A stretch of 64,000 nt of DNA, from the NCBI RefSeq assembly GCF_030013205.1, contig NZ_CP122648.1, one strand, 5' to 3'. The notes below the pieces were generated by a model. That model searched no databases. It worked only from the letters and a program-made list of their open reading frames with translations, and was not told the origin of the DNA. Shown piece by piece: positions 11,293-33,280 of the stretch; within the stretch, counting starts at the first letter, position 1; the number at the start of each line of letters is the position of its first letter. This stretch comes from Escherichia coli. GTDB taxonomy: Bacteria > Pseudomonadota > Gammaproteobacteria > Enterobacterales > Enterobacteriaceae. Position numbers and translations under genes: made by a program.

Positions 11293-12536
11293 GCGAGTTG
11301 AGTTATCTGGAAAAATTGCTGGATGGGGTTGTGGTTGAGTGGAAAACCCTTGAGGATATTTCTATAAAGATATCATCTGGAGGAACCCCTAAAACTGGCG
11401 TATCAGAATTTTATGATGGCGACATTCCTTGGTTGCGAACTCAAGAAGTAAACTTTTGTGATATATGGGATACCGAGGTAAAAATAACTGAGTCTGGAGT
11501 TAAAAACTCTAGTGCAAAATGGATACCAAAGAATTGTGTCATTGTTGCTATGTATGGGGCAACTGTGGGGAAAATCGGCATAAACAAAATTCCAATGACA
11601 ACAAATCAAGCGTGCGCAAATATTCAACTTAATGAAGAAGTTGCTCATTATAGATATGTATTTCACTTCTTGTGTAGCCAATACACATATATCAAATCCC
11701 TTGGAACAGGGTCCCAGACAAACATAAATGCGCAGATTGTCAAAAATATTAAGATCCCCATCCCCTGCCCAGAAAACCCGGAAAAATCCCTTGCCATCCA
11801 GTCTGAAATCGTTCGGATTCTGGACAAATTTACTGCACTTACCGCTGAGCTTACCGCTGAGCTTAACATGCGTAAAAAACAGTACAACTACTATCGCGAC
11901 CAGTTGTTGAGTTTTAAAGAGGGTGAGGTTGAGTGGAAAAGTCTGGAAGATATTGCTTTATTTAGACGGGGTTCATTTCCACAGCCATATGGAAATAGTG
12001 AATGGTATGATGGAGAAGGTTGCATGCCTTTTGTTCAGGTAGCTGATGTGGCTGATTCAGGATTTACATTACACACAAAAACCAAACAACAGATTTCTAA
12101 GATTGCACAAAGCAAGAGCGTTTTTGTTGAGGCTGGAACAATTGTTGTGACACTGCAAGGTACTATTGGTCGAGTAGCAATAACACAGTACGATTGTTAT
12201 GTGGATAGAACTCTTGCAATATTTACTAACTTTAAAGTAAAAATAAACAAAAAATACTTTGCTTATCAACTAAAAGCTAAATTCGATTCAGAGAAAGAAT
12301 TTGCAAGAGGAAGTACTTTGAAGACAATTACAAAAGAAGAGTTTTCTAAGTTCCAATTACCTCTTCCCTCAATAAACGAACAAAATCGTATAGTATCACT
12401 ATTGGATAAGTTCGATACACTGGCTCATTCAATAAAACAAGGTCTCCCGCGTGAAATCGAGTTGCGCCAGAAACAATACGAATACTACCGTGATTTACTG
12501 TTCAGTTTCCCGAAACCTGAAACTGCCAGTAATTAA
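11289..12536 (+). CDS. hsdS: Type I restriction-modification system, specificity subunit S (type IC-like, two TAEL repeats in central conserved region)
   Basis: 415 aa with two target-recognition halves each followed by KQYxYYRDxLLSF conserved region; central LTAELTAEL. Confidence 0.85.
11841..11864 (+). repeat. 12-bp tandem repeat (accgctgagctt x2) encoding TAEL-TAEL in hsdS
   Basis: Direct tandem duplication read in sequence; in type IC hsdS genes the copy number of this unit sets the spacer length of the recognition site. Confidence 0.8.
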
Positions 12537-12657
12537 TTGATCATTGCTACCGATCGGACCACCTTAACACCCGGTCAGTATATAGACTATTTTTTACGCG
12601 CCGGAAGTCACCATTACCCCCCTTCCGGCCCTTGCCAGACGGCACAAAGGATGCGCT

Positions 12658-15600
12658 ATGACTCATCAGACACACACCATTGCTGAATCCAATAACTTTA
12701 TCGTTCTTGATAAGTACATCAAAGCTGAGCCAACAGGCGACAGCTACCAGAGCGAATCGGACCTGGAACGTGAACTGATTCAGGACCTGCAAAATCAGGG
12801 TTATGAATTTATTTCCGTAAAATCACAGTCGGCAATGCTATCCAATGTTCGGGAACAGCTTCAGAGCCTCAATGGTGTGATGTTTAATGACAGCGAGTGG
12901 CGGCGCTTCACGGAGCAGTATCTGGACAACCCCAGCGATGGTATTCTGGATAAAACCCGTAAAATCCATATCGACTATATCTGCGACTTTATTTTTGACG
13001 ACGGGCGACTTGAGAACATCTATTTGATAGATAAAAAGAATCTCATGCGCAATAAGGTGCAGATTATCCAGCAGTTTGAACAGACGGGTTCTCATGCTAA
13101 CCGTTATGACGTCACGATCCTGGTTAATGGTTTACCGCTGGTGCAAATCGAACTAAAAAAACGCGGGGTGGCGATTCGTGAGGCTTTCAACCAGATACAT
13201 CGTTACAGTAAAGAGAGTTTTAACAGCGAAAATTCCCTGTTTAAGTATCTGCAACTGTTTGTCATTTCTAACGGCACCGATACCCGTTATTTTGCCAACA
13301 CGACAAAGCGCGATAAAAACAGTTTTGACTTCACCATGAATTGGGCGAAATCAGACAACACGCTGATTAAAGACCTCAAAGACTTTACCGCTACCTTTTT
13401 CCAGAAACATACTCTGCTGAATGTTCTGGTGAACTACAGCGTTTTTGACAGTAGTCAGACGCTACTGGTGATGCGACCGTACCAGATTGCCGCCACCGAG
13501 CGCATTCTGTGGAAAATTAAGAGTTCCTTTACAGCGAAGAACTGGTCAAAACCGGAAAGCGGTGGGTATATCTGGCACACTACCGGTTCTGGTAAAACCC
13601 TCACCAGCTTTAAAGCCGCGCGTCTGGCAACAGAGCTGGACTTTATTGATAAAGTCTTCTTTGTGGTCGACAGGAAAGACCTCGATTACCAGACCATGAA
13701 GGAATATCAGCGTTTTTCGCCAGACAGCGTCAACGGCTCGGAAAATACCGCAGGCCTTAAACGAAATCTGGATAAGGACGATAACAAAATTATCGTCACT
13801 ACTATTCAGAAACTCAATAACCTGATGAAAGCAGAAAGCGACCTGCCTGTATATAATCAGCAAGTGGTGTTTATATTTGATGAATGCCACCGCAGCCAGT
13901 TTGGAGAAGCGCAGAAAAACCTGAAGAAGAAATTCAAACGCTATTATCAGTTTGGTTTTACCGGCACCCCTATTTTCCCGGAAAACGCCTTAGGCTCAGA
14001 AACAACCGCCAGCGTATTTGGTCGTGAATTGCATTCGTATGTAATTACCGATGCGATTCGTGACGAAAAAGTGCTCAAATTCAAAGTGGACTACAACGAT
14101 GTGCGGCCACAGTTTAAGTCTTTAGAGACAGAAACTGACGAGAAAAAACTAAGTGCGGCTGAAAATCAGCAGGCGTTTCTTCATCCCATGCGTATTCAGG
14201 AAATCACGCAATATATTCTGAATAATTTCCGCCAGAAAACTCACCGTACCTTCCCTGGCTCAAAAGGTTTTAATGCTATGTTGGCAGTGAGCAGCGTGGA
14301 TGCCGCGAAAGCCTATTATGCGACGTTTAAACGGTTACAAGAAGAAGCCGCTAATAAATCGGCTACCTATAAACCGCTGCGTATTGCGACAATCTTCTCC
14401 TTTGCCGCCAATGAAGAACAAAATGCCATTGGTGAAATTTCCGATGAAACTTTTGATACCAGCGCAATGGACAGCAGTGCTAAAGAGTTTCTGGACGCTG
14501 CAATTCGTGAATATAACAGCCATTTTAAAACTAACTTTAGCACCGACAGTAACGGTTTTCAGAACTACTATCGTGATTTAGCCCAGCGGGTTAAAAATCA
14601 GGATATCGATCTGCTAATTGTCGTGGGGATGTTTTTAACCGGCTTCGATGCTCCAACATTGAACACGCTATTCGTCGATAAAAACTTGCGTTTTCACGGC
14701 CTGATGCAGGCATTTTCCCGCACCAACCGTATTTATGATGCAACTAAAACCTTCGGTAATATCGTCACTTTCCGGGATCTGGAACGCTCAACTATTGATG
14801 CCATAACGCTGTTTGGTGATAAAAACACCAAAAATGTGGTGTTAGAAAAGAGTTATGCTGAGTATATGGAAGGCTTTACTGATGCTGCTACTGGTGAAGC
14901 TAAACGCGGCTTCATGACAGTAGTTTCAGAACTGGAACAACGGTTCCCTGACCCTGCCAGTATTGAAAGTGAAAAAGAGAAGAAAGACTTCGTTAAACTG
15001 TTTGGCGAATACCTGCGTGCCGAGAACATCCTGCAAAACTATGATGAATTTGCCACGCTAAAAGCCCTGCAACAAATCGATCTTAGCGATCCTGTTGCGG
15101 TAGAAAAATTCAAAGCAGAACATTATGTGGATGATGAAAAGTTCGCTGAATTGCAAACAATTCGTCTCCCTGCTGATCGCAAGATTCAGGATTATCGTTC
15201 TGCCTATAACGATATTCGCGACTGGCAGCGCCGTGAGAAAGAAGCTGAGAAAAAAGAGAAATCAACCACTGACTGGGATGACGTAGTTTTTGAGGTCGAT
15301 TTGCTGAAGTCTCAGGAAATAAACCTGGATTATATCCTTGGACTGATTTTCGAACACAACAGACAAAATAAAGGCAAGGGCGAAATGATCGAAGAGGTCA
15401 AACGCTTAATTCGTTCAAGCCTGGGGAACCGTGCTAAAGAGGGCCTGGTGGTCGATTTTATTCAGCAAACGAACCTGGATGATTTACCGGACAAAGCCAG
15501 CATCATTGACGCATTCTTTACGTTTGCTCAACGCGAACAGCAACGTGAAGCAGAAGCCTTGATCAAAGAAGAAAATCTCAATGAAGAGGCGGCGAAACGC

Positions 15601-15774
15601 TATATTCGCACATCTTTAAAACGCGAATACGCCACCGAAAATGGCACGGAATTAAACGAGACACTGCCCAGACTCAGTCCTTTAAATCCGCAATATAAAA
15701 CGAAAAAACAGACTGTTTTTCAAAAAATTAGCGCATTTATTGAAAAATTTAAGGGGGTGGGTGGAAAGATTTAG
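12658..15774 (+). CDS. hsdR: Type I restriction enzyme endonuclease/helicase subunit R (type IC-like)
   Basis: 1038 aa; SF2 helicase motifs (TGSGKT Walker A, DECHRS DEAH-box); stop codon abuts the IS5 end. Confidence 0.85.
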
Positions 15775-16970
<1,196 letters not shown>

Positions 16971-17163: not shown

Positions 17164-18135
17164 ATGAACGACAAAATCAGTCAGGACACGATCAACAAAG
17201 CCCTGTGGGCCGCGTGTGATACGTTCCGTGGCACCATCAGTGCTGATACCTATAAAGACTTTATCCTTACCATGCTGTTCCTTAAGTACATTTCGGATGT
17301 CTGGCAGGATCATTACGATGAATATAAAAAACAGTATGGTGATGCACCAGAACTCATTGAAGCCATGATGGCGAATGAACGTTTCGTATTGCCGAAAAGC
17401 GCCAGTTTCTATGCGCTGTATGAACGTCGTCATGAACCGGGCAATGGTGAGCGCATCGACCAGGCTCTGCATGCGATTGAAGAAGCTAATGGCACCAAAC
17501 TGAAAGACGCCGGGAAAAGCGTGTTCCAGGATATTTCGTTTAACACCGATCGCCTAGGTGAAGAAAAACAGAAGAACACCATCCTGCGTCAGCTGCTGGA
17601 AGACTTTGCCGGTCAAGATCTTAACCTGAAGCCGAGCCGTGTCGGTACGCTGGACGTTATCGGTAATGCCTACGAATATCTGATCAAAAACTTTGCTGCC
17701 AGCGGTGGGCAGAAAGCCGGGGAATTCTATACCCCACCAGAAGTTTCGGACCTGATTGCAGAACTGCTCGATCCGCAACCGGGTGATACCATCTGCGATC
17801 CAGCCTGTGGTTCCGGTTCATTATTGATGAAGTGTGGGCGTAAAATTGTCTCCGGGCATGATAGTCGTAACTATGCATTGTTCGGTCAGGAAGCGATCGG
17901 TTCTGCGTGGTCGCTGGCGAAAATGAATATGTTCCTGCACGGGGAAGACAACCATAAAATCGAGTGGGGCGATACCATTCGTAACCCGAAGCTGCTCGAT
18001 AAAAATGGCGACCTGATGCTGTTTGATATCGTGACCGCTAACCCACCGTTCAGCCTCGATAAGTGGGGCCATGACGAGGCCGAGAACGATAAGTTTGGCC
18101 GTTTTCGTCGCGGTGTACCGCCGAAGACTAAAGGA
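17164..18135 (+). pseudogene. Second type I hsdM-like methyltransferase gene, 3'-truncated (homology lost after ...GVPPKTKG)
   Basis: SAM motif DPACGSGSLL and NPPF present; C-terminal third of HsdM missing; ORF tail after 18135 is non-homologous and a different frame opens. Confidence 0.7.
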
Positions 18136-18136
18136 G

Positions 18137-19471
18137 GTATGGGATGCCTGCGCCAATATGGAGCGCTATATCCAGTACGGCTTTACCCCGCAAGAGCGCC
18201 ACCGTCTGTTTGGTGAGAGCGACTGGGGTCAGTTTGTGCCCCGTGATTTTGCCCATCTGCTTGATCTGCTAGGATCCCCAAACACGGCCGACGCTGCCGA
18301 TAAAAGCCGTGCAGCTGCCGGTAGCCAAGGGCGCACCTTGTTGGCCATTTTGCAGGATGACAAGCTTGATGGTGAGCAGACGGTGGAGGAGGAGAGCGCA
18401 GGCTCCGAGCGCTTTAACAGCGTCATCAACTTCTCCAACTTCTTGCTCCATGTGCTGCGACTCGTGAGCCGCGACCCGGGTGATACGGAGGGGGTGCCGC
18501 TTGATGATAAACAACTGGTCGATCAGTTTGAGCTGCGAGTGATAAGGCAACCGGATCCAGTAGCGGCAGTTCAGCGTTTTATCTATGGCCTGTTAAAGAG
18601 CAAGTATCTGTTTGATCAGTTCATCATCAAGCGCGAGTTTGCCGATGGCAAGGATAGTTGGAGTTTGAAGCGGCTGCACAGGTATTCGGAAAAGAGCGTC
18701 AGTTACATCAATACCTTTGACAAGGATGAAAATGAGAATGGTTTCTCTGGTGTTAACCGGCGGGTCCTGATGTTGCTGTCGGCGTTTCATGTGTCGACCC
18801 CGACCCTGGTTTACAAACATTGGCTGAATGGTGCACTGAGATATCTGTTCGACAATTGTCACCCTGATCAACCGGTGGATGCCGGGGCTTATCTGTCCTA
18901 TCTGGAGAGTCAGGCTCGCCGCTTTGTCTTCCAGCGCTTTTTGGCGCCTGGTGAAGGGGCTTCCTATTACCAGATGCTCTACCTTGATAACGCCCTGTTG
19001 CCCGCCATCAATGTGGATGAGAGTTGGCACAAGGTGATTACATCCAAACTTCGCTTCGGTCATATCGAGAACAACTTTGTCTTCAACTTCCTCGACTATC
19101 TGCTGTGGGTACGAGATCGGAATAGCGACAAAGTTGCTGGCTCCTTTGAGTTCACTTTCCGCAGCTCGGTGGAGCACTTCTCACCCCAGCATCCGATGGA
19201 TGGCTATAAACCGGTTGAGCAGAGTGCACTCCATTCGTTTGGCAACCTTTGCCTTATCAGCCACAGCAAGAACTCGCGCTTGAGTAACTTCCAGCCGCAA
19301 CAGAAGCAGGAGCACTTTGAAGCAAGCCTTGCCAATAACCAGACTGATAGTCTTAAATTGCTTGCTATGATTCGGCTGATGAAAGATAAAGGTCGTTGGC
19401 TGGAAGATGAGATAGCTGTGCATCAACAAGATATGTTGCAGGTCTTACTATCCAATCAAATTCAGCAATAA
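18137..19471 (+). CDS. DUF1524-like (GmrSD C-terminal-type His-Me finger nuclease) region; probably a 5'-truncated gene joined to the hsdM remnant, possibly a stand-alone ~437-aa protein from ATG 18158
   Basis: C-terminal motifs [13 protein letters not shown]...[18 protein letters not shown] resemble DUF1524; no DUF262 DGQQR motif seen upstream. Confidence 0.45.
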
Positions 19472-19645
19472 CGGATTGAATCTGTTTATGAAATTTGGCT
19501 GCTATCAACTAATGGGCGTTAAGTTGATTGTATGATCTGATTGATAAAGAAGGGGAGACTAAAAATCTCCTCTTCTTTGCAGCAGTTTACTGCGGTCTTT
19601 TTGTGATGCATCAGCATAAAACGTTTTACTTGTGGACCCTAAGAA

Positions 19646-22600
19646 ATGGAGAACATTATGTCGACTGTAGATACCTCTATAGCAGAGGAACTCAATCAAG
19701 GAGGCTCAGATTTTATTCTGACTTCCCTCGAGGCTATGCGTAAGAAGTTATTGGACCTTACGTCTCGAAATCGACTTTTGAATTTCCCTATCACTCAAAA
19801 AGGGTCTTCACTACGTATTGTTGATGAATTACCAGAACAGCTTTATGAAACCCTTTGCTCGGAAATCCCGATGGAATTTGCTCCTGTGCCCGATCCAACT
19901 AGAGCGCAGCTGTTAGAGCATGGCTATCTCAAAGTTGGGCCAGATGGTAAAGATATACAGTTAAGAGCTCATCCTAGCGCTAAGGATTGGGCGCACGTCT
20001 TAGGAATCCGTACAGATTTTGATTTACCAGATAGCCATAAAACGGTTGTTTCTGATTCAGATAGAGAGTTGCTGGAAAAAGCCCATCAGTTTATCTTGCA
20101 ATATGCCCAAGGCCAGAATGGAAAATTAACAGGGATTCGTTCTGAATACGTTAATCAAGGTATAGCTTTGTCAGCGTTGAAGGAGGCGTGCTGCTTAGCA
20201 GGCTATGAAGGGCTTGAGGATTTTGAACGACAGGCAAAGGCTGGGAATGAGATTAGTATATCTTCTTCCAATCCCTCTCATGACGATAATCGGATACAGG
20301 CTCTGCTTTATCCAAATGAACTGGAAGCTTGTTTGCGCGCCATCTATGGTAAGGCTCAAACTGCTTTGGAGGAGAGTGGCGCCAACATCTTGTATTTGGC
20401 GTTAGGGTTCCTTGAGTGGTATGAAAGCGATTCCTCTGAAAAGGCACGTTATGCACCGTTATTTACAATTCCGGTGAGATGTGAACGAGGAAAATTAGAT
20501 CCGAAGGATGGTCTTTACAAGTTTCAACTTTATTACACGGGTGAAGATATTTTGCCCAATCTCTCTTTGAAGGAAAAACTTCAGGCTGACTTTGGCCTCG
20601 CTCTTCCTTTGTTCAATGAAGAGGAAACTCCAGAGTCTTATTTTGCTTCGGTGAAGAAGGTTGTAGAGCAGCACAAACCTAAATGGTCTGTGAAACGTTA
20701 TGGTGCACTTAGCTTGCTCAATTTTGGCAAGATGATGATGTATCTTGACCTCGATCCTGCCCGCTGGCCTTGTGACAAGCGCAATATATTGTCTCATGAA
20801 GTAATTCGTCGCTTTTTCACCAGTCAGAGCTGTGGTCAAGAGAATTCCGGCTTACCTGGTGGCTTCGGTCAGCATGAGTACTGCATCGATAGTTACCCTG
20901 ATATTCATGACAAGGTTCCACTAATCGATGATGCGGATAGCTCGCAGCACAGTGCGTTGATCGATGCTATCCGTGGTCAAAACTTAGTCATTGAGGGCCC
21001 TCCTGGTAGTGGCAAATCACAAACGATCACCAACTTGATTGCAGCAGCTCTGCTCAACGGTAAGAAAGTCCTGTTTGTGGCAGAGAAGATGGCTGCACTG
21101 GAGGTCGTCAAACGTCGCTTGGATCGTGCGGGGCTAGGTCAATTTTGCTTAGAGTTGCACAGTCATAAAACTCATAAGCGCAAGGTGCTGGATGATATTA
21201 ATGCTCGCTTGGTGAGTCAGGCGACCATGCCTACTATGGAAGAGATTGATGCTCAGATTTTGCGTTATGAAGATCTTAAGCAGCAGCTCAATGAATATGC
21301 CGCATTGATCAATAACCAATGGGCGCAAACAGGCAAAACGATCCATCAGATTTTGAGTGGTGCAACCCGTTATCGTCACAAATTAGATATTGATGCAACA
21401 GCACTTCATATCGAAAACCTTTCCGGGAAGCAGTTGGATAAAGTGACCCAATTACGGCTGCGTGACCAAATAGTAGAGTTTAGCCGCATCTACAAAGAGG
21501 TTCGTGAGCAGGTGGGGGCTAATGCAGAAATATATGAGCACCCTTGGAGCGGTGTGAATAACACACAAATTCAATTGTTTGACAGCGCTCGTATAGTCGA
21601 TTTGCTACAAACTTGGCAGACATCAATTATCGACTTTCAACATAGCTATCAAGAATATGTAGATAAGTGGGCGTTAGAAGGCGAAAGCCTTAATACGCTT
21701 CAATATATTGAGCAATTGGTAGAAGATCAGTCGAATCTTCCAGTGTTGTGTGGTTCAGAGCATTTCCCAGCACTTAGTGAGCTAGATTCACCCGATGCCA
21801 TTGCACGGGTGCGTCACTATTTAGATAGGTTCGAGTTGCTACAAGGTCATTATGTGGCCTTGAGCCAGGTTATCGAGCCTCAAAAGCTACGACTTTTAGA
21901 ACAAGGACAATCGTGTGACTTTCCTCGTGAAGAGCTGGAAAAATATGGTGCAGCAGAGGATTTCACTTTACGTGATTTGGTCAGGTGGCTTGAATCCATC
22001 CAATCAATTCATGATGAGTTATCATCTATTTATGCGCAATTAAACGATTTCAAAAATGCTTTGCCAGATGGTATTGCTTCGTATATCGATGATTCGCAAG
22101 CTGGATTGCTATTCTGCTCTGAGTTGTTGTCGATTCTGGGTGCTTTACCGACTGAGCTTATTAGAGTTCGAGATCCTCTTTTTGATGATGATGATATCGA
22201 TGCAGTATTGCGCGACTTAATGTGTCAAATCGAAACATTGCGTCCTTTAAGAGATGGTCTATCTACTTTGTATCAATTGGACCAGTTGCCTTCCCAAGAG
22301 ATGCTCGCGCATGCCGTTGCTGTTATCCAGCAAGGGGGATTATTTGCATGGTTTAAGAGTGATTGGCGTAGTGCCAAGGCACTGCTCATGGCGCAATCTC
22401 GTAAGCCCGACACTAAGTTTGCTGAGTTAAAACGCTGCTCAGCTGATTTGCTCAAGTATTCGGAGCTGTTACAACGGTTTGAACAAAGTGACTTTGGTAA
22501 TCAACTTGGTAATGCATTCCGAGGGTTGGACACCGACTGTGAACAACTCATGTTATTGCGTGATTGGTACAAGAAGGTCCGAGCTTGTTACGGGATAGGT

Positions 22601-25393
22601 TTTGGAAAGCGAGTTGCGATAGGCTCTGGATTATTTAACCTAGATGGTGAGATTATCAAAGGTGTGCATTTAATCGAGAAATCGCAGATTAGCTCAAGAT
22701 TAATGACTTTGGTTAAACGGGTCGAGCACGAGGCTAAGTTATTACCGCGTATTTCTAGCTTGTTGGAAGAACATGCATCTTGGTTAGGTGAGCAAGGTGT
22801 ATTGATGCAATCTTACCGACAGGTGCGGAATACTCTCATTGCCTTGCAGGGATGGTTTATCAATCCAGATATATCATTAGAGCAGATGACTCATTCCTCC
22901 GAGATTTTGCAAAACATAAACGATCTTCAGATATCCCTTGAAAATGACTCGTTACAGTTAGGGGCGTTTTTACAATTAACCCCATTGGCTTGCGGTGCGT
23001 ATAAAAATAATCAACTGACGTTAGACACTATTAACGACACGCTGAATTTTGCCGAGCAACTGGTTGATAAGATAAATTGCGTATCCTTGGCTACCCAGAT
23101 CAGACATTTGGCTAGTGGTAGTGATTACGATTTACTATGTCGTGATGGTGGGGAAATAGTTTCGAAATGGAATGAACAGATTAAAAATGCTGAGTTATAT
23201 GCGCTAGAAACAAAGTTAGAGCGGAGTCAGTGGCTCAAGTCGACTGATGGTTCTCTTAATACATTAATCGAGCGCAACGAAAGAGCAATACAGCAACCCC
23301 GTTGGTTGAACGGGTGGGTTAACTTTATTCGTTGTTACGAGCAGATGGATGAAAACGGATTGCAGCGAATCTGGAGTGCTGTACTTGCGGGCTCGCTCCC
23401 GATTGAAAAAGTTGAATTGGGTTTAGCATTAGCAATTCATGACCAGCTGGCGCGGGAGGTTATTCACATCCACCCTGAATTGATGAGAGTTTCCGGCTCA
23501 CAGCGCAATGCTTTGCAGAAGTCATTTAAAGATTACGACAAAAAACTGATTGAATTACAACGTCAGCGGATTGCAGCAAAAATTGCTTGCCGAAATATAC
23601 CAGAAGGGAATTCTGGTGGTAAGAAAAGCGAATATACAGAACTAGCTTTGATCAAAAATGAGTTGGGTAAAAAAACCAGACATATTCCAATTAGACAATT
23701 GGTTAACCGTGCATGTAATGCGCTGGTTGCAATTAAACCTTGTTTCATGATGGGGCCAATGTCAGCAGCTCATTACCTAGAACCTGGACGAATGGAATTT
23801 GATCTGGTGGTGATGGACGAAGCGTCTCAGGTGAAGCCAGAGGATGCATTGGGTGTCATCGCGAGGGGCAAGCAACTAGTGGTCGTTGGTGACCCGAAAC
23901 AGCTACCACCAACCAGTTTCTTTGATCGAAGTGCCGACGGAGAAGATGACGATGATGCCGCGGCTTTAAGTGATACTGACAGCATTTTGGATGCTGCTTT
24001 GCCACTGTTTCCTATGAGACGTTTGCGTTGGCACTATCGTTCACGACATGAAAAGTTGATTGCATACTCTAACCGCCATTTTTATAACAGTGATTTGGTG
24101 ATATTCCCTTCCCCAAATGCTGAGTCTCCAGAGTATGGGATTAAATTTACCTATGTGTCAAAAGGTCGGTTCTCCAATCAACACAATATTGAAGAAGCCC
24201 AAGCAGTTGCTGAGGCCGTACTTCATCATGCGCAACACCGGCCGGGTGAGTCACTCGGGGTAGTGGCCATGAGTTCCAAGCAACGCGATCAAATTGAGCG
24301 CGCTATCGATGAATTGCGCCGAAATCGCCCTGAATTTAACGATGCAATCGATGGCTTATATGCCATGGAAGAGCCACTTTTTGTGAAAAACCTTGAGAAC
24401 GTTCAAGGGGATGAGCGTGATGTAATCTTTATTTCCTTTACCTATGGACCTTCTGAGCATGGTGGAAAGGTTTATCAACGCTTTGGACCTATCAATTCCG
24501 ATGTTGGCTGGCGTCGCTTGAATGTGCTTTTCACTCGATCAAAAAAACGGATGCATGTGTTTAGTTCAATGCGTTCTGAAGATGTATTGACGAGTGAAAC
24601 CAGTAAACTTGGTGTTATTTCGTTGAAAGGTTTTTTACAGTTTGCCGAAAGTGGCAAACTAGATTCCCTCACAACGCATACCGGCAGGGCTCCAGATAGT
24701 GACTTTGAGGTTGCTGTAATGGAAGCACTCAATCACGCTGGGTTTGAGTGTGAACCTCAGGTAGGGGTTGCAGGATTCTTTATTGATCTAGCTGTGAAAG
24801 ATCCAGGTTGTCCTGGCCGTTACTTAATGGGCATAGAGTGTGATGGTGCGGCTTATCACTCAGCTAAATCTGCTCGTGATCGTGACCGTTTGCGTCAAGA
24901 GGTTCTGGAGCGTTTGGGTTGGAGAATTAGCCGCATTTGGTCCACTGATTGGTTCAGTAATCCTGATGAGGTTCTATCTCCGATTATCCGTAAACTCCAT
25001 GAGCTTAAAACATTGGCTCCAGACGTTGTTGTACCTTCCTATGAATATGTAGAAACGATTGAGTCAAGCGCTGAAGTGGCGTCTGACTCAATTGATTCTC
25101 TTATGCCCAATTTGGGGCTTAAGGAGCAACTTAAGTATTTTGCCACACATGTCATTGAGGTTGAGCTTCCTAATGTTGATGCTGATCGTCGTTTGTTGCG
25201 GCCCGCAATGCTTGAGGCTTTGCTGGAACATCAGCCTTTATCACGTTCCGAGTTTGTTGAACGAATACCTCATTATCTGCGGCAAGCAACAGATGTATAC
25301 GAAGCGCAACGCTTTCTTGACCGAGTCTTGGCATTAATTGATGGCGCAGAGGCTGAAGCGAATGATGCAGCGTTTGAGTCTGAATTGGCATAA
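19646..25393 (+). CDS. Large (1915-aa) DUF4011 / SF1 Upf1-like helicase / Vsr-like (PD-(D/E)xK) endonuclease / DUF3320-type protein; architecture matches the single-gene Hhe-type defence family
   Basis: N-terminal LLDLTSRNRLLNF; Walker A GPPGSGKSQT; Walker B VVMDEASQ; motif III VVGDPKQLPPT; motif VI NVLFTRSKKR; C-terminal GIECDGAAYHSAKSARDRDRLRQEVLERLGWRISRIWSTDW. Start may be ATG 19658 (better-spaced GGAG). Confidence 0.8.
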   Translation: MENIMSTVDTSIAEELNQGGSDFILTSLEAMRKKLLDLTSRNRLLNFPITQKGSSLRIVDELPEQLYETLCSEIPMEFAPVPDPTRAQLLEHGYLKVGPDGKDIQLRAHPSAKDWAHVLGIRTDFDLPDSHKTVVSDSDRELLEKAHQFILQYAQGQNGKLTGIRSEYVNQGIALSALKEACCLAGYEGLEDFERQAKAGNEISISSSNPSHDDNRIQALLYPNELEACLRAIYGKAQTALEESGANILYLALGFLEWYESDSSEKARYAPLFTIPVRCERGKLDPKDGLYKFQLYYTGEDILPNLSLKEKLQADFGLALPLFNEEETPESYFASVKKVVEQHKPKWSVKRYGALSLLNFGKMMMYLDLDPARWPCDKRNILSHEVIRRFFTSQSCGQENSGLPGGFGQHEYCIDSYPDIHDKVPLIDDADSSQHSALIDAIRGQNLVIEGPPGSGKSQTITNLIAAALLNGKKVLFVAEKMAALEVVKRRLDRAGLGQFCLELHSHKTHKRKVLDDINARLVSQATMPTMEEIDAQILRYEDLKQQLNEYAALINNQWAQTGKTIHQILSGATRYRHKLDIDATALHIENLSGKQLDKVTQLRLRDQIVEFSRIYKEVREQVGANAEIYEHPWSGVNNTQIQLFDSARIVDLLQTWQTSIIDFQHSYQEYVDKWALEGESLNTLQYIEQLVEDQSNLPVLCGSEHFPALSELDSPDAIARVRHYLDRFELLQGHYVALSQVIEPQKLRLLEQGQSCDFPREELEKYGAAEDFTLRDLVRWLESIQSIHDELSSIYAQLNDFKNALPDGIASYIDDSQAGLLFCSELLSILGALPTELIRVRDPLFDDDDIDAVLRDLMCQIETLRPLRDGLSTLYQLDQLPSQEMLAHAVAVIQQGGLFAWFKSDWRSAKALLMAQSRKPDTKFAELKRCSADLLKYSELLQRFEQSDFGNQLGNAFRGLDTDCEQLMLLRDWYKKVRACYGIGFGKRVAIGSGLFNLDGEIIKGVHLIEKSQISSRLMTLVKRVEHEAKLLPRISSLLEEHASWLGEQGVLMQSYRQVRNTLIALQGWFINPDISLEQMTHSSEILQNINDLQISLENDSLQLGAFLQLTPLACGAYKNNQLTLDTINDTLNFAEQLVDKINCVSLATQIRHLASGSDYDLLCRDGGEIVSKWNEQIKNAELYALETKLERSQWLKSTDGSLNTLIERNERAIQQPRWLNGWVNFIRCYEQMDENGLQRIWSAVLAGSLPIEKVELGLALAIHDQLAREVIHIHPELMRVSGSQRNALQKSFKDYDKKLIELQRQRIAAKIACRNIPEGNSGGKKSEYTELALIKNELGKKTRHIPIRQLVNRACNALVAIKPCFMMGPMSAAHYLEPGRMEFDLVVMDEASQVKPEDALGVIARGKQLVVVGDPKQLPPTSFFDRSADGEDDDDAAALSDTDSILDAALPLFPMRRLRWHYRSRHEKLIAYSNRHFYNSDLVIFPSPNAESPEYGIKFTYVSKGRFSNQHNIEEAQAVAEAVLHHAQHRPGESLGVVAMSSKQRDQIERAIDELRRNRPEFNDAIDGLYAMEEPLFVKNLENVQGDERDVIFISFTYGPSEHGGKVYQRFGPINSDVGWRRLNVLFTRSKKRMHVFSSMRSEDVLTSETSKLGVISLKGFLQFAESGKLDSLTTHTGRAPDSDFEVAVMEALNHAGFECEPQVGVAGFFIDLAVKDPGCPGRYLMGIECDGAAYHSAKSARDRDRLRQEVLERLGWRISRIWSTDWFSNPDEVLSPIIRKLHELKTLAPDVVVPSYEYVETIESSAEVASDSIDSLMPNLGLKEQLKYFATHVIEVELPNVDADRRLLRPAMLEALLEHQPLSRSEFVERIPHYLRQATDVYEAQRFLDRVLALIDGAEAEANDAAFESELA

Positions 25394-25415: not shown

Positions 25416-25586
25416 GTGACAACTGTCGGACAACGTGAACGCGCAACTCAACAGCGCGTAATCAGGTTTTTTATTGAGGAATTGGGCTATCGTTATCTAG
25501 GCGATTGGCACAAGCGTCCTAACAACCGTAATGTTGAGCCTGATTTGCTCAGTCATTGGTTGATTGACCGTGGTGTTGTGGACTGA
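25416..25586 (+). pseudogene. N-terminal stub (56 codons) resembling a restriction R-subunit-type N-terminus, truncated by IS3-family insertion
   Basis: GTG-initiated ORF VTTVGQRERATQQRVIRFFIEELGYRYLGDW... ends in the TGA formed by the first bases of the IS at 25584. Confidence 0.45.
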
Positions 25587-25613: not shown

Positions 25614-26062
25614 TCACGACGAGGCCTGTTCGAAGGCCTCCGGACTGACGCCGCCGAGGTGACTGTGGCGCCGGGCCCGGTTGTAGAACACTTCAATGTA
25701 ATCGAAGATATCCGCCCGGGCTAGATCCCGGGTTTTGTATATTCTCTTCCTGATGCGCTCTTTTTTCAGTGAACTGAAGAACGATTCGGCCACCGCATTA
25801 TCCCAGCAGTTGCCACGCCGGCTCATGCTCGGGACCAGGTTATTAGCCCGGCAGAAGTGCTGCCAGTCGTCACTGCCGTACTGGCTTCCCTGGTCTGAGT
25901 GCACGATGACCTCGCCGTCGGGTTTACGTCGCCAGACCGCCATCATCAGTGCATCCAGCGCCAGTTCGCGTGAGAGAGTGGGCTTCATCGACCAGCCCAC
26001 CACGTTACGGGCGAAGAGATCGATAACCACCGCCAGATACAGCCAGCCCTGCCAGGTGCGGA
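25614..26062 (-). pseudogene. IS3-family transposase OrfB, 3' exon (DDE domain C-terminal part) downstream of intron
   Basis: ...RTWQGWLYLAVVIDLFARNVVGWSMKP...HSDQGSQYGS...GNCWDNAVAESFF...; joins in frame with DVTYI on the other side of the intron. Confidence 0.8.
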
Positions 26063-26113
26063 GTAGAGTAAGAGGCAGGGCGTAGTCGGACTATTTCCCT
26101 GCCTCTCCTCCCC

Positions 26114-26147
26114 GAACCGGACGTGCACCTTTCAGCGCATCCGGCTC
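26114..26147 (-). ncRNA. Group II intron domain V (catalytic hairpin)
   Basis: Minus strand reads GAGCCGGAUGCGCUGAAAGGUGCACGUCCGGUUC, matching the domain V consensus pattern (GAGC...GAAA...GUUC). Confidence 0.8.
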
Positions 26148-26152
26148 TCCAT

Positions 26153-27676
26153 TTAAATGCTGGCGAACGCCATTGCCACTTCTGTAAAGCGCGATGTATA
26201 CGTGTTTCTGGTCTCCGTCCTCAGATAGGGATTACCTTCGGGTAGCCGCCAGCGGAACAGCTTCTTGCCTTGCCCCACCAACCGGTACAGTATTTCGCCG
26301 CTGAGCTTGCCGTGATTGGTTTTACCAAATAAAACCCACGTTTTGCTCTGACCCGGTTTCGGTGATTTACACCACCACCTCATCAGGGAAGCGATACCTG
26401 TACGGTATTTGTGGGCCAGCCAGTGAGCCAGCTTCCAGAACACGACACGGTCGATATAACTGAAGACTTTGGCCTTAAAATCAACGAACTGATAGAACAT
26501 GGCCCAGCCTTTCAGTTTTCGGTTGAGTTGTTCAGCCATATCGACTTTGCTTTCACTGTAGTTGCCTGATAACAGTGCTGTCAGCGATGCGGCGAAGTTT
26601 CTGGCTTTCTCCTGCGGGATCGTTGAGACCACTCGCATCTCGCCATAACGACTGCGTTTGCGAATGATCCTGTGCCCCAGAAAGATAAAGCCGTCATTAA
26701 CATGGGTGATTTTAGTCTTATCCATGTTCAGCCTGAGTTTCAGACTGCCTTTGAGCACACCCCGACACTCCTCCCTGATGGCTTCCGCCTGTGCTTTGGT
26801 GCCTTTGACGATGAGGACAAAATCATCGGCATAGCGGCAGTACGCCACCGCGGGTTTCCACTGCCAGTTTTCTCTGACCGCCGTACTTCGGCCCCGTTGG
26901 ATACTGTTATTCCAGTACCACCGATCTTTTCTGGCTTTCCCGCTCAGGTAGCGCTCATGCAGGTATTGATCGAACTCATTCAGCATGATGTTCGATAATA
27001 GCGGCGATATAACACCGCCCTGTGGCACACCTTCACTGGCCGCCCGAAAGAGACCGACATCGATATGTCCCGCCTTGATGGTTTTCCACAGCAGAGTCAT
27101 GAAACGTGCGTCACTGATCCTGCGGCGTACAGCCTTCATCAGCAGTCGATGATGTACGGTGTCGAAGTAACTGGACAGGTCGCCTTCAATCACCCAGCGT
27201 CCCCGGGTTTCACCACAGTCTGTGAGCTGTAATTTCACCGTGCGGATCGCGTGGTGGACACTGCGCTCAGGCCGGAAGCCATATGAGAGCGTATGAAAAT
27301 CACTCTCCCATATCGGCTCCATCGCCATCAGCATGGCCCGCTGAACAATACGATCCCGCAACGCGGGGATACCCAGTGGTCGCAGTTTGCCGTTGCTTTT
27401 AGGGATGTAAACCCGTCTGGCGGGCAAGGGCTGGTAGTGGCCTGAGAGTAATTCATCCCTGAGGATTTGCAGCTCAACAGCCAGTCTGGCCTGTAGCATT
27501 GTTTTGTTCACGCCATCAACGCCGGGGGTATGGGCCCCCTTTGATGAAAGCGTGATCCGCGCCGCTTCAGCCAGCCATTCTGGTTGTGTTATCAGACGCA
27601 GCAGCCGTTGAATCCGTAGGGACGGATCGGTGGCTGCCCATGTGGCAAGCTTGCGTTGCATTTCGCTGATTATCAA
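26153..27676 (-). CDS. Group II intron-encoded reverse transcriptase/maturase
   Basis: 507-aa ORF with RT motifs incl. YADDFV; no HNH-type endonuclease cysteine motifs seen at C-terminus. Confidence 0.85.
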   Translation of the reverse strand: MIISEMQRKLATWAATDPSLRIQRLLRLITQPEWLAEAARITLSSKGAHTPGVDGVNKTMLQARLAVELQILRDELLSGHYQPLPARRVYIPKSNGKLRPLGIPALRDRIVQRAMLMAMEPIWESDFHTLSYGFRPERSVHHAIRTVKLQLTDCGETRGRWVIEGDLSSYFDTVHHRLLMKAVRRRISDARFMTLLWKTIKAGHIDVGLFRAASEGVPQGGVISPLLSNIMLNEFDQYLHERYLSGKARKDRWYWNNSIQRGRSTAVRENWQWKPAVAYCRYADDFVLIVKGTKAQAEAIREECRGVLKGSLKLRLNMDKTKITHVNDGFIFLGHRIIRKRSRYGEMRVVSTIPQEKARNFAASLTALLSGNYSESKVDMAEQLNRKLKGWAMFYQFVDFKAKVFSYIDRVVFWKLAHWLAHKYRTGIASLMRWWCKSPKPGQSKTWVLFGKTNHGKLSGEILYRLVGQGKKLFRWRLPEGNPYLRTETRNTYTSRFTEVAMAFASI

Positions 27677-28332
27677 AGGTCTTCACCTCGTTAGGTCAGT
27701 TAATTCACGTCGTAAACACATTCAAACTGCTTCCCTTCGCCATGTAATGGGCTTTCCCCATCGCGGACTACTACGGAAGCTCCGCCAGCCAGCGCGTCAT
27801 CGGAGCCATGCCCCCTTAACATCCGTCGCTGACCTTCCCCGGTTTACCTGCCTGGACTCAGGCATACTGAGGAGGCTGCCCGTCGCACTCTTTATCCTTG
27901 CTTGCCGCAAGTTGGCAGAAGTCAGCAACGCAAGCGTGATAGACGCTGCTGCCCCGGTGTTTCGCATACATGTCAAAACACCTTCGACCGGCAGTGCTTA
28001 CGTATCACTGCCAGTTCCTCCTGCACGGCCTGTCAGATCACGTAGGCCGTGGTGACGTTTTCAACCCACAGAGGCGGATTAACGGGTTCATGTTCTTCAG
28101 CCTTTCAGTACTTAACCTTGAGGATCATCTCGGCTTAGTGATCTCGCCTCAATCCCCGTTGTCAGCGGGTTACATCACCTTGCGGGCATGCCGCAGGTCA
28201 CTGCCGCTCAGGTTCTCCACCGTCACACCCGGTGGGATTGTTGGGTTTCTCATCGTGAGTTACCGGTTCAATATTCCAGACAGATTCGCGGTTCATTTAA
28301 GCATCCATGCCCGCCCTGAACTCCGGGCACAC

Positions 28333-28761
28333 TATAGGTCACATCACCGCACCACACCTGATTTGGCTCGGTCACGGCGAACTGCCGTTCAAGGTAGTTA
28401 GGGATAGCAACGTGCTCATGACCGCCACGCTTATACCGGTGAGTCGGCTGCTGGCAACTGACCAGTCCCAGCTCTTTCATGAGTCTGCCAGCAAGCCAGC
28501 GCCCCATCTGGTAGCCTCTCCGGGTTGCCATTGTGGCGATGCTTCTTGCTCCGGCAGAGCCGTGGCTGATGCCATGCAGTTCAAGTACCTGGCTGCGTAA
28601 TACAGCCCGTCTGCCGTCTGGCTTTTCAGGACGGTTTTTCCAGTATTTGTAGCTGCTGCGATGGACCCCGAACACATGGCAGAGAGTGGCCACAGGATAA
28701 CGCGCCCTGAGTTTCCCGATTATCGAGAACTGTTCAGGGAGTCTGACATCAAGAGCGCGGT
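28333..28761 (-). pseudogene. IS3-family transposase OrfB, 5' part (between IS30 and intron)
   Basis: ...[44 protein letters not shown]...[11 protein letters not shown] then intron 5' end. Confidence 0.7.
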
Positions 28762-32032: not shown

Positions 32033-33280
32033 GGCAATGTATTATTTAAACTGTAATAATTTAATTTTAGGATGTGTAGCAGCAGCCCGATACAGAGTTG
32101 CAAGGACACACTTTTGCCAGAGGGCGTTACAGGAAAGCTTAATGTTTGATTCTGTATACATAATAAATCACCTTATAGTTACAATAGGTCAAAAACCGCT
32201 GTAGCCAAAGTTACGCTGGCCTGATGCTTTAGTGTCGAACTTCGTCAAATAATCCAGACGTACCAATAAGCGCTGGTACTGCTCTGGGAAATCAGGATCG
32301 TTAATATCCAGGATGTAACGCCCATTAGTAGGGAAATGAACTAATCCCTGGTGATCTTCCAGTTCCAACCCTAAGGCACTGTACCAGGCTCCGGTAATTA
32401 ACCCTCTCAGGGTGTCAGAGCGCTCATAGTCTCCCAGGTGGTAATAGGCGTCTTTGTTAAACAACAGGCAGACGTGATAATGACATTTAAAGGACTGTGT
32501 ATATTCTTTCGCCCAGATAATACAAACCGACGTTGCGTAGGTGCGTTTGCCTTATTGTTTTTTACGGTGTTGATCTGCATTAATTTTCGCATTCAGCGAG
32601 TTACGGAAACGAGATATCTCTCCGGGGATCAGGTTAGGGAAACAGGTAATGGTATCCCCGTTGTCAATCACAGGAGGGTAATGGAGATCCACCCGTATTG
32701 CTGTTATTCTGGAAGTATTTTTAATATTCGTATTGATAGTTCTCAGAGATATATCACACTCTAGATATTTTAATTAAGTATCAGTTCGATATCGGCATAT
32801 TGTACACTACCTCAGGTAGATGATGAGATCAGATACAGGGATCAACTGACGGTGAACGCAGTTCCCACATTTTATCCAGGGCTTACTGCATATTCCCAAC
32901 AGCCATTCGTTAGCCAGGTAGACGAATACCCTTTCCGCTGGTTTTGCTTTCCCATCGAAGGGCCCATACATCATCACGCCCGCGAAACAACCGACGAAAT
33001 AATGCAACCTTCTCGTCGGTGGATAATACGAAAACGCACTGCACAGGGCTCTGCGGTTTACGTCACCATTCAATCCCATGAGCTTCAAGTTATGTTTGCC
33101 CTTAGTGCAGCTAATTCATCATTGTCAGATTTATGAACTATATGCGTTACCTGTACCTGCCCCACGGGGTACCACCACAGAAGATGAAGTGTCATAGTCC
33201 CCTGCGCTGAGGACAAAACTACGCATTAACGACAAATCCACGCGATAACTTACGATGGTTCGGGCATAAGCCCCCGTAAT

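Follow-up and report, generated by a model that had tools for sequence, protein, structure and literature searches.

The anti-phage gene hhe of Escherichia coli is cargo in a decayed type I restriction-modification operon and encodes a helicase-nuclease with a long insertion in its motor

Here we describe an intact copy of hhe in a window of 64,000 nucleotides from an Escherichia coli chromosome. The gene is already known and is routinely named by PGAP and PADLOC. It sits in a genomic island of ~37 kb at tRNA-Ser, where it is cargo in a second type I restriction-modification (R-M) operon (ψhsdM ... hhe ... hsdR´). The rest of this operon has decayed, and hhe is its sole intact gene. The encoded protein is probably an effector in which a helicase is coupled to a DNA nuclease. 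Its motor domain is split by a long helical insertion, for which we put forward a tentative structural reading.

An intact gene for Hhe

19646-25393, + strand: hhe CDS, ATG to TAA, 1915 codons plus stop

The original prediction of an intact gene for a 1915-aa protein was borne out. Its open reading frame (ORF) is the longest listed within 8-36 kb, in line with the claim that this is the largest gene, and is followed by HsdR at 1038 aa. Because 5.7 kb remain uninterrupted in DNA of 44% GC, a chance origin is ruled out, and the 1915-codon ORF is an intact, genuine gene. Translation is likely to start at the ATG at 19658, which is the start used by PGAP and gives a protein of 1911 aa; this start is favoured by a GGAG at 19648-19651.

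The gene is, with near certainty, hhe (HheA), a catalogued stand-alone anti-phage gene of E. coli. The identification follows from a score above a curated threshold, an end-to-end match to the PADLOC model and the domain architecture of Hhe. The NCBIfam equivalog model NF042953 (curated cutoff 2000 bits) scores 2738.3 bits over residues 27-1898, and the PADLOC Hhe model (PDLC02194) scores 4300.8 bits, aligning residues 5-1915 with model positions 1-1911 of 1911. The protein is 100% identical to P0001, a cluster with 4010 member sequences named Hhe by their sources. It agrees with catalogued Hhe in model match, length, domain order, E1731 numbering and species, and no difference was found in any testable feature. 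The Hhe family had been named correctly at the outset; the label "candidate" defence protein was too cautious for a gene that is experimentally reported as a defence gene and named by PGAP. RefSeq/PGAP annotates hhe in 308 of 5426 complete E. coli genomes, and the copies are often disrupted by IS elements or truncated.

In published work, hhe counts as a single-gene system (bioRxiv 10.1101/2022.06.16.496414; bioRxiv 10.1101/2024.10.10.617714). The phage range, as given in one preprint with reference to Gao et al. 2020 Science, comprises lambda, T3, T7 and PhiV-1, and not T4 (bioRxiv 10.1101/2022.06.16.496414). The same source describes the anti-T7 activity as "very weak" in one laboratory and reports that the substitution E1731A abolishes defence. 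This numbering fits the window protein, in which E1731 falls inside the motif IECDG. The literature searched contained no biochemistry of Hhe; on mechanism and trigger it offered the one nuclease-site mutant and, from a phage knockout screen, candidates for triggers and counters, and nothing further. For this literature, the earlier statement that both are uncharacterised holds.

Domain architecture

Residues 1-430: N-terminal alpha/beta region, containing DUF4011
19745-20581, + strand: DUF4011 domain (residues 34-312, Pfam E 2.7e-37)
20936-21175, + strand: first half of RecA domain 1A (residues 431-510), containing Walker A
20996-21019, + strand: Walker A, GPPGSGKS (residues 451-458)
21176-23680, + strand: helical insertion in RecA 1A (residues ~511-1345, ~835 residues)
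23681-24580, + strand: rest of RecA 1A and RecA 2A (residues ~1346-1645)
23816-23827, + strand: DEAS, Walker B (residues 1391-1394)
Residues 1415-1422: GDPKQLPP
Residues 1587-1592: QGDERD
Residues 1629-1634: FTRSKK
24704-24997, + strand: Vsr-like endonuclease of PD-(D/E)xK type (residues 1687-1784, MTES_1575 E 7.5e-37)
24836-24838, + strand: GAG codon of E1731, in the nuclease catalytic-site motif IECDG (residues 1730-1734)
24998-25390, + strand: C-terminal region (residues 1785-1915), with a conserved block at ~1850-1895

Hhe has the SF1 motif set and a two-RecA core with an Upf1-like fold, and the four SF1 motifs named in the original prediction (GPPGSGKS, DEAS, GDPKQLPP and FTRSKK) were all located. 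The C-terminal Vsr-like nuclease was likewise found, with a Pfam DUF559 (Vsr-like) match at residues 1728-1784 (E 3.4e-05) in addition to MTES_1575. As regards the proposed Pfam content, DUF4011 and AAA_12 (residues 1459-1641) match, AAA_11 matches in two parts (residues 431-622 and 1382-1424), and DUF3320 gives no match in the window protein even at E <= 10. The order DUF4011, AAA_11/AAA_12, Vsr-like nuclease is accompanied by an identical Pfam set in 120 of 120 closest homologs, and PF11784 (DUF3320) is absent from all 120. A divergent DUF3320 at the C-terminus of Hhe was considered and is not supported: the position is equivalent, and the hhalign E value is 0.26 in a crude comparison whose template alignment is led by a poor sequence. 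The family alignment has invariant columns at G451-N463 and at the nuclease residues D1714, E1731, D1733 and H1738; K457, D1391-E1392 and E1731 are all present in the window protein and family-invariant. The DUF4011 domain of Hhe has no structural relative.

DUF3320 belongs to the sister family ProA (NF058533) and not detectably to Hhe. ProA and PDC-S37 share with Hhe the combination of DUF4011, Upf1-like helicase and MTES_1575 nuclease, can be aligned with it over almost the full length, and have in common with it the insertion motifs HPWxG and FGxxWxGxxTD. ProA differs in several respects. The distance from Walker A to Walker B is 616-674 residues vs 940 in the window protein, the insertion blocks at ~700-850 and ~1000-1165 of Hhe are missing, DUF3320 follows the nuclease (L033, E 5e-15), and the model extends a further ~355 aa at the N-terminus. 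The window protein is not a ProA, with 1135.6 bits against NF058533 (cutoff 1500), compared to 1659.8 for the true member L033. No papers on ProA or PDC-S37 were found in the literature searched.

The two-RecA fold is common to Hhe and the Upf1-like SF1B helicases (Upf1, IGHMBP2, Sen1/SETX, Dna2, RecD2/Dda), from which Hhe is set apart by its all-helical insertion. Dna2 carries an N-terminal, RecB-like nuclease, whereas that of Hhe is C-terminal and Vsr-like. Upf1, IGHMBP2 and Sen1/SETX, which come closest to Hhe in structure, act chiefly as RNA helicases, and this leaves room for RNA or R-loops as the substrate.

The helical insertion

The insertion at residues ~511-1345 is predicted to consist of helices only, about 40 short ones, the longest predicted to span 31 residues. 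These ~835 residues have no structural match. The conserved motif HPWxG lies at 632-636, and a conserved island at ~851-1000 includes T963, W974, Y975, R979, G983, F986 and G987. The Walker A-to-B spacing of 940 residues in the window protein falls inside the range of the Hhe class (~887-944 residues; class ranges drawn from 78 proteins).

Two features of the length variation point to a fold-back. First, the insertion is without indels among Hhe-class proteins and changes in steps between classes, from ~630 residues in ProA to ~935 in Hhe and ~1220 in a longer class. Second, the changes are paired, at ~700-850 and ~1000-1165, and are mirrored about residue ~928, with ~140-165 residues gained at each of the two sites per step. 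The insertion may fold back on itself, forming an arm whose tip is conserved. The fuller proposal, in which a fold-back arm with a conserved tip has its length set in discrete evolutionary steps, is one that we regard as possible and rather doubtful. In being all-helical and in having outgoing and returning halves matched by length changes, the insertion resembles the arms of SMC/Rad50-type proteins; it differs from them in having no long continuous coiled-coil helices and is more like stacked helical bundles.

No internal sequence repeat was detected in the insertion: sliding hhalign self-comparison returned only faint off-diagonal matches (probability <=13%). For antiparallel covariation, the anti-diagonal enrichment of mutual information was 2.5x, which is within the permutation range; the top pairs were conservation artefacts, and most of the signal came from columns with almost no variation and from outlier sequences. 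The literature searched contained no description of a comparable arm or ruler design for any SF1 helicase or defence protein.

Proposed mechanism

We favour the reading that Hhe is a helicase-coupled DNA nuclease effector and consider it likely. In the uninfected cell, Hhe would be kept inactive. Phage DNA metabolism would then provide a substrate or state that licenses loading of the enzyme, such as ssDNA, forks or the free 5´ tails of phage DNA undergoing replication or recombination. The motor would consume ATP and travel 5´ to 3´ on one strand, a polarity suggested by the SF1B fold, and the fused endonuclease would cleave the DNA and thereby halt phage replication; spill-over might be toxic to the host. 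Sensing, autoinhibition or self-association would likely fall to the DUF4011 region and to the helical insertion. The proposed trigger and arm function are speculative, and we give them about one chance in three at best.

A DNA intermediate as trigger is suggested by two results of PhageMaP. Seven T7 class II DNA-metabolism genes, with a span of g1.4-g2, are candidate triggers, and the toxicity of Bas63 g40 is confined to cells with hhe; the authors favour sensing of a function over sensing of a protein (bioRxiv 10.1101/2024.10.10.617714). A possible parallel in working mode, judged by analogy, is found in Nhi, Hna, Hachiman (HamAB), Druantia DruE-DruH and Mokosh, in which a motor surveys nucleic acid and licenses a nuclease, and in the published mechanisms of Hachiman and Druantia III activation is tied to DNA damage or to forked DNA structures. 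Mokosh MkoA and MkoC also have similarity to Hhe in the helicase core (PADLOC). The likeness does not amount to membership: these systems have other helicase clades or nucleases, most are two-component, and both DUF4011 and the long helical insertion are lacking in all of them.

The substrate could instead be RNA, R-loops or transcription complexes, with Hhe sensing phage transcription or the shut-off of host RNA polymerase and the nuclease cutting the associated nucleic acid. Upf1, IGHMBP2 and Sen1/SETX act on such substrates, and the T7 range g1.4-g2 includes gp2, an inhibitor of host RNA polymerase. We nevertheless judge this explanation unlikely, although the best placed of those competing with DNA cleavage, given that the effector comes from a family of DNA endonucleases (Vsr/DUF559/MTES_1575) and that the candidate triggers are described as DNA-metabolism genes.

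A decayed type I operon around hhe

9736-15774, + strand: intact type I hsdM-hsdS-hsdR (hsdM 651 bits, hsdR 767 bits, both above cutoffs; PGAP)
15922-16902, - strand: ISKpn26 (PGAP)
17164-18136, + strand: ψhsdM, 5´ part (TIGR00497 positions 4-324 of 515; PADLOC MTase_I)
18136-19471, + strand: ψDUF262/GmrSD, 3´ part, GmrSD_C (DUF1524) kept (PF07510, E 2.3e-11)
19577-19595, + strand: terminator-like hairpin between the upstream remnant and hhe (consensus scan only)
25416-25586, + strand: hsdR´ stub, first 56 codons (Pfam HSDR_N model positions 2-41 of 198, E 0.0038)
25614-26030, - strand: C-terminal fragment of an IS3-family transposase, adjoining hsdR´ (NF033516, 187.6 bits; PGAP)

hhe is located between ψhsdM and hsdR´, on the same strand as both. 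The three flanking remnants named in the original prediction are real. The hsdM-like ORF spans 17164-18216, of which ψhsdM proper ends at nt 18136, a deletion junction mapped against L082; the deletion, of 3.4 kb, fused ψhsdM to the ψGmrSD/DUF1524 remnant (ORF 18071-19471). In most hhe-positive E. coli, an intact 680-aa gene of the GmrSD family and a 483-aa DUF262 partner lie upstream of hhe; in L082 this pair spans 11850-15336. Downstream, hsdR´ begins 22 nt past the hhe stop codon and ends ~27 nt before the ORF of the IS3 fragment (25614). Its 56 codons match the starts of annotated HsdR proteins with 46-58% identity over 49-56 of 56 residues (tblastn; H125, H127-H129), and the stub occurs, unannotated, in 294 E. 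coli genomes. No other ORF of at least 80 aa was found downstream of hhe besides the transposase fragment, and the hsdS of the second operon is absent at the hhe locus. The complete type I system that had been noted upstream is present and distinct, its hsdM having only 30% identity to ψhsdM; it is not directly upstream of hhe, as ISKpn26 and the remnants lie between.

Cargo of the PrrC type is known from type I R-M operons. A similar embedding is seen in pSTEC1012_1, where an operon with an HsdR of the same lineage as that at hhe is organized as hsdM-hsdS-DUF4433-macro-hsdR; correspondingly, hsdM and hsdR enclose hhe, which in most E. coli carriers is accompanied by the two DUF262 genes. The difference is that the carrier of hhe is ruined, with hsdM truncated, hsdS absent and hsdR reduced to 56 codons. 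The gene is also found on plasmids and moves between islands, and the hhe-hsdR´ module is present on ~294 E. coli chromosomes and ~200 Klebsiella plasmids.

This setting raises the question of whether Hhe is a working accessory of type I R-M, using, for example, the methylation of the operon or HsdR to tell self from non-self. The position of hhe and the other cargo held between hsdS and hsdR in the related operon with full-length HsdR are in keeping with such a role. Among 80 Hhe/ProA loci from other species, type I genes flank the gene in 10, including 7 of the 27 Hhe-class loci, and at one (L031) it is placed between hsdM and hsdR. At the remaining 70, none was found within 7 kb, and the type I genes that do occur vary in side and order. 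The published description as a one-gene system and the ~294 E. coli genomes that retain hhe with a mere hsdR stub also argue against dependence and fit an autonomous cargo in a decayed carrier. Taken together, we find an accessory function improbable. Under it, the copy described here, being without its operon, would be crippled or unregulated.

Nor did the same 80 loci yield a conserved partner of another kind. No neighbour family occurs in more than 8 loci, the family that reaches 8 stands beside the Hhe class once, the type I R-M families are found in 6 loci each, and no counterpart of the upstream GmrSD remnant lies beside any other Hhe. As far as gene neighbourhoods can tell, Hhe is a single-gene system without an obligatory partner. 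The original suggestion of a defence hotspot or a former multi-gene system is therefore right as to a decayed type I operon around hhe, and should not be taken to mean functional dependence, since no partner is shared across species.

Two further explanations concern the activity itself. Abortive infection by depletion of NAD+ or adenine nucleotides, suggested by the PhageMaP authors, draws on the finding that phage NAD+-synthesis genes are mild counters of hhe: deletion of Bas63 g79 or g80 leads to smaller plaques and lower competitive fitness on hhe cells, an effect that is mild and common to unrelated systems (bioRxiv 10.1101/2024.10.10.617714). Scans of the whole protein with Pfam, NCBIfam and PADLOC detected no SIR2, TIR, NADase or nucleosidase domain and defence requires the endonuclease residue E1731, so that this explanation is very improbable. 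Counters of this kind are not predicted by pure DNA cutting. Least probable of all is a housekeeping helicase-nuclease of DNA repair or recombination with incidental defence, for although a core gene that borders a defence hotspot in all P. aeruginosa isolates encodes DUF4011 and the architecture is Dna2-like, hhe is an accessory gene in E. coli, frequently broken, island-borne and mobile, with a GC content of 0.443 vs ~0.49 in the flanking core.

Conclusion

In conclusion, the locus is a clean case of defence cargo that has outlived its carrier operon. The anatomy of Hhe, with its SF1B core, its length-quantised insertion and DUF4011, supplies concrete constructs for biochemistry. If the proposal of a stepwise fold-back arm is true, the ATP site of DUF4011 helicase-nucleases is linked to a distal sensing head by a modular "reach" or ruler element, which could set the DNA structure or the distance that licenses the nuclease.

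Identity and domain organization of the gene

The 1915-codon open reading frame on which the original prediction was built runs intact from ATG to TAA (19646-25393, + strand). A GGAG at 19648-19651 favours ATG 19658, the start also picked by PGAP, and the true start is therefore more likely there, giving a protein of 1911 residues. All four quoted helicase motifs were located, together with the following Pfam domains:

Motifs and domains of the protein (residues)
34-312, DUF4011 (E 2.7e-37)
431-622 and 1382-1424, AAA_11, in two separated pieces
451-458, GPPGSGKS, the Walker A motif
1391-1394, DEAS
1415-1422, GDPKQLPP
1459-1641, AAA_12
1629-1634, FTRSKK
1687-1784, MTES_1575, restriction-endonuclease-like (E 7.5e-37)
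1728-1784, DUF559, a Vsr-like family

With every motif present, the SF1B motor is intact, as is the Vsr-like endonuclease domain, and beside motor and nuclease stand two large conserved regions, DUF4011 and a helical insertion. Pfam and PADLOC searches thus matched DUF4011, AAA_11, AAA_12, the nuclease and Hhe as claimed. The exception is DUF3320, which gave no Pfam match in this protein even at E <= 10 and is absent from all 120 nearest homologs. In the sister family ProA (example locus L033), DUF3320 follows the nuclease (E 5e-15), whereas Hhe is without it; the earlier naming of this domain is explained by its presence in ProA.

The assignment to the Hhe family was borne out. The PADLOC Hhe model matches end to end (4300.8 bits), and at 2738 bits the protein clears the cutoff of 2000 set for the NCBIfam equivalog 'DUF4011 domain-containing anti-phage protein Hhe'. 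The protein is 100% identical to a cluster of 4010 member sequences, and the glutamate of its IECDG motif (residues 1730-1734) is E1731, the site of the published catalytic mutant E1731A. From these model matches, the cluster identity and the coincidence at E1731, the gene is almost certainly a copy of the known hhe. The finding is an ordinary one, as hhe is already known and routinely annotated: of 5426 complete E. coli genomes, 308 contain its DNA (301 of them at >=99% identity), and RefSeq names it hhe. Several E. coli copies are truncated or interrupted by IS1203, IS5 or IS100. In Pseudomonas aeruginosa, a large DUF4011 gene is reported to flank the defence hotspot cDHS1 as a core gene of every isolate, in contrast to the accessory, island-borne hhe of E. 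coli.

The island and the remains of a type I operon

The gene lies on an island of ~37 kb that has tRNA-Ser as its insertion site and an integrase at its other end; ghrA and dgcT/pgaA flank it. The chromosome of E. coli ETEC4070 matches the window at 99.99% identity.

Features of the island
5415-42352, the island
5415-5502, tRNA-Ser, one boundary
9736-15774, intact type I hsdM-S-R upstream of hhe, followed by ISKpn26
17164-18136, 5' part of a second hsdM, fused at nt 18136 to a GmrSD-family 3' part
19577-19595, terminator-like hairpin separating hhe from the upstream remnant
25416-25586, hsdR' stub, a 56-codon ORF starting 22 nt past the hhe stop
25614-26030, - strand, IS3 fragment ORF following the stub
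26153-27676, - strand, ltrA, group II intron reverse transcriptase/maturase (TIGR04416, 340 bits)
41144-42352, - strand, tyrosine integrase, the other boundary

According to the ETEC4070 annotation, the island also carries a CbtA/CbeA toxin-antitoxin pair, an antirestriction gene, a truncated autotransporter, a GTPase, two inovirus Gp2-like genes, a DUF3987 gene split by IS1 and a pseudogenised 'TOTE conflict system' primase fragment (32816-33141); pgaB (about 47021-49040) is frameshifted in the same record. The intron sits in a fragmented IS3-family element (25614-28760, - strand), beyond which lie IS30 and more transposase debris.

The hsdM-like, DUF1524-like and hsdR-stub remnants reported around hhe are all real. 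The truncated hsdM is just 30% identical to that of the intact system, and the GmrSD-family part retains its GmrSD_C/DUF1524 domain. The stub matches positions 2-41 of the Pfam HSDR_N model (E 0.0038), and 49-56 of the 56 residues of its peptide align at 46-58% identity with the starts of annotated plasmid HsdR genes. None of the 294 carrier E. coli genomes has the stub annotated, nor do the Klebsiella plasmid records among the matches listed.

The hsdM-GmrSD fusion is common to only 15 E. coli genomes. Most hhe-positive genomes instead have an intact, overlapping DUF262 pair (first gene 483 aa; second gene 680 aa, including DUF1524) directly upstream of hhe. Relative to these, the window carries a 3,420-bp deletion, with the junction at 18136 and the missing part corresponding to 10581-14000 of the comparison locus L082. 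For this pair there is no NCBIfam name, and models of HEC-06, Orf5, SspE and type IV restriction match it at domain level only; it could represent a two-gene GmrSD-like module that is still uncharacterised. The ancestral order was hsdM-(hsdS)-DUF262-DUF262-hhe-hsdR. On E. coli plasmid pSTEC1012_1 (6456-15096), a full-length relative of the stub HsdR belongs to the operon hsdM-hsdS-DUF4433-macro domain-hsdR, where the DUF4433 and macro-domain proteins take the slot of hhe. This cargo resembles a DarT/DarG-like pair.

GC content is clearly lower in the intact type I genes (0.433) and hhe (0.443) than in the intervening hsdM/GmrSD remnant (0.506) or the flanking chromosome (about 0.49), which points to different origins of adjacent island pieces. 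The hhe-hsdR' module is found in 294 E. coli genomes, and the stub recurs on about 200 Klebsiella plasmids; the plasmid matches overall are mostly typed as conjugative. From this distribution, the module moves between chromosomal islands and plasmids. On the single Klebsiella plasmid inspected (K. pneumoniae NZ_CP022125, 1-7168; conjugative IncF), hhe is split by the Tn3-like IS3000, and ISKpn24 follows the stub; this copy is inactivated.

A helical insertion of quantised length

In this protein, 940 residues separate Walker A from Walker B. In an AlphaFold2 model of residues 431-1630 (from 60 sequences; mean pLDDT 87.3), the first RecA domain is predicted to assemble from its two halves, and residues ~511 to ~1345 form about 40 helices, each <=31 residues, and nothing else. 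Between residues 250 and 1900, 35 Hhe homologs (identity down to 45%) show no indel, and identity drops to 23-37% in residues 650-950 and 1000-1200.

A family scan with one genome per species gave 80 loci, which span many bacterial phyla and include two archaea. In 78 of the proteins encoded by the main ORFs of these loci, bacterial and archaeal, the distance from Walker A to Walker B falls into three sharp classes with no intermediates:

Spacing classes
616-674 residues, short class (ProA), 48 proteins
887-944 residues, Hhe class, 26 proteins
1215-1241 residues, long class, 4 proteins

The short class is NCBIfam ProA (cutoff 1500 bits; L033 reaches 1660). Compared with Hhe, ProA is missing the blocks that span about 700-850 and about 1000-1165, whereas the long class has about 140 residues more at each of these sites. 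A conserved island at about 851-1000 sits between the two variable blocks, and the paired length changes are mirrored about residue ~928: the boundaries 511 and 1345, 700 and 1165, and 850 and 1000 each total about 1850-1865. The simplest reading is a putative helical arm that folds back on itself, with a conserved tip and halves that lengthen together. No internal repeat was detectable by sequence within the insertion. A classical two-stranded coiled coil would need longer helices than those of the model.

Autonomy and proposed mode of action

In the literature searched, Hhe is named mostly in defence-system inventories, and no structure or biochemistry was found. One preprint states the Vsr nuclease domain and relays activity against lambda, T3, T7 and PhiV-1 from Gao et al. 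2020; in its authors' hands the anti-T7 effect was very weak and was lost with E1731A, and T4 was not restricted whatever its DNA-modification state (10.1101/2022.06.16.496414). In PhageMaP, seven T7 class II genes (g1.4-g2, g2.8) were candidate triggers, read by the authors as a function being sensed and not a protein, and the Bas63 NAD+-synthesis genes g79 and g80 were mild counters (10.1101/2024.10.10.617714).

Is hhe a stand-alone gene? The most recurrent neighbouring gene family occurs at just 8 of the 80 loci, almost all of them of the short class, and its pattern resembles synteny conserved within lineages. Three further families follow with 6 loci each; two of these are type I hsdM and hsdR, whose side and order change from locus to locus. 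No counterpart of the GmrSD remnant accompanies any other Hhe at these loci. Because of this lack of a recurrent neighbour or GmrSD counterpart, the upstream hairpin and the published handling of hhe as a single-gene system (10.1101/2022.06.16.496414; 10.1101/2024.10.10.617714), gene content and order speak for hhe as an autonomous gene, one frequently carried within type I operons and defence islands; membership of a larger machine is not supported. The earlier alternative of a defence hotspot or former multi-gene system thus stands as regards a former type I operon, seen in the ancestral layout, and is not supported as regards multi-gene dependence.

Defence depends on nuclease residue E1731 (10.1101/2022.06.16.496414), and the candidate triggers are phage DNA-metabolism functions (10.1101/2024.10.10.617714). 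The effector is probably a motor-coupled DNA nuclease. Hhe would be kept inactive until phage replication or recombination yields a loading substrate, e.g. ssDNA, forks or 5' tails; the motor would then travel 5'->3' with ATP while the fused nuclease cuts DNA. Such cutting would halt the phage and may harm the host too, which would fit the toxicity of Bas63 gene 40 solely in hhe-carrying cells (10.1101/2024.10.10.617714). DUF4011 and the putative arm may be sensing, autoinhibitory or self-association parts. These roles of trigger and arm are tentative. RNA or an R-loop as substrate, as in Upf1 and Sen1, is unlikely beside a DNA-directed motor-nuclease, and dependence on type I restriction, for all the hsd genes near hhe, is more doubtful still, given their varying order. 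Action through NAD+ or nucleotide depletion, which the mild effect of g79 and g80 might bring to mind, is very improbable, and a housekeeping repair role slightly more so.

The observation underlying the original prediction is confirmed and its interpretation supported, DUF3320 apart. The length-quantised helical insertion is the sole feature here for which we found no prior description, and it belongs to the whole family, not to this locus in particular.
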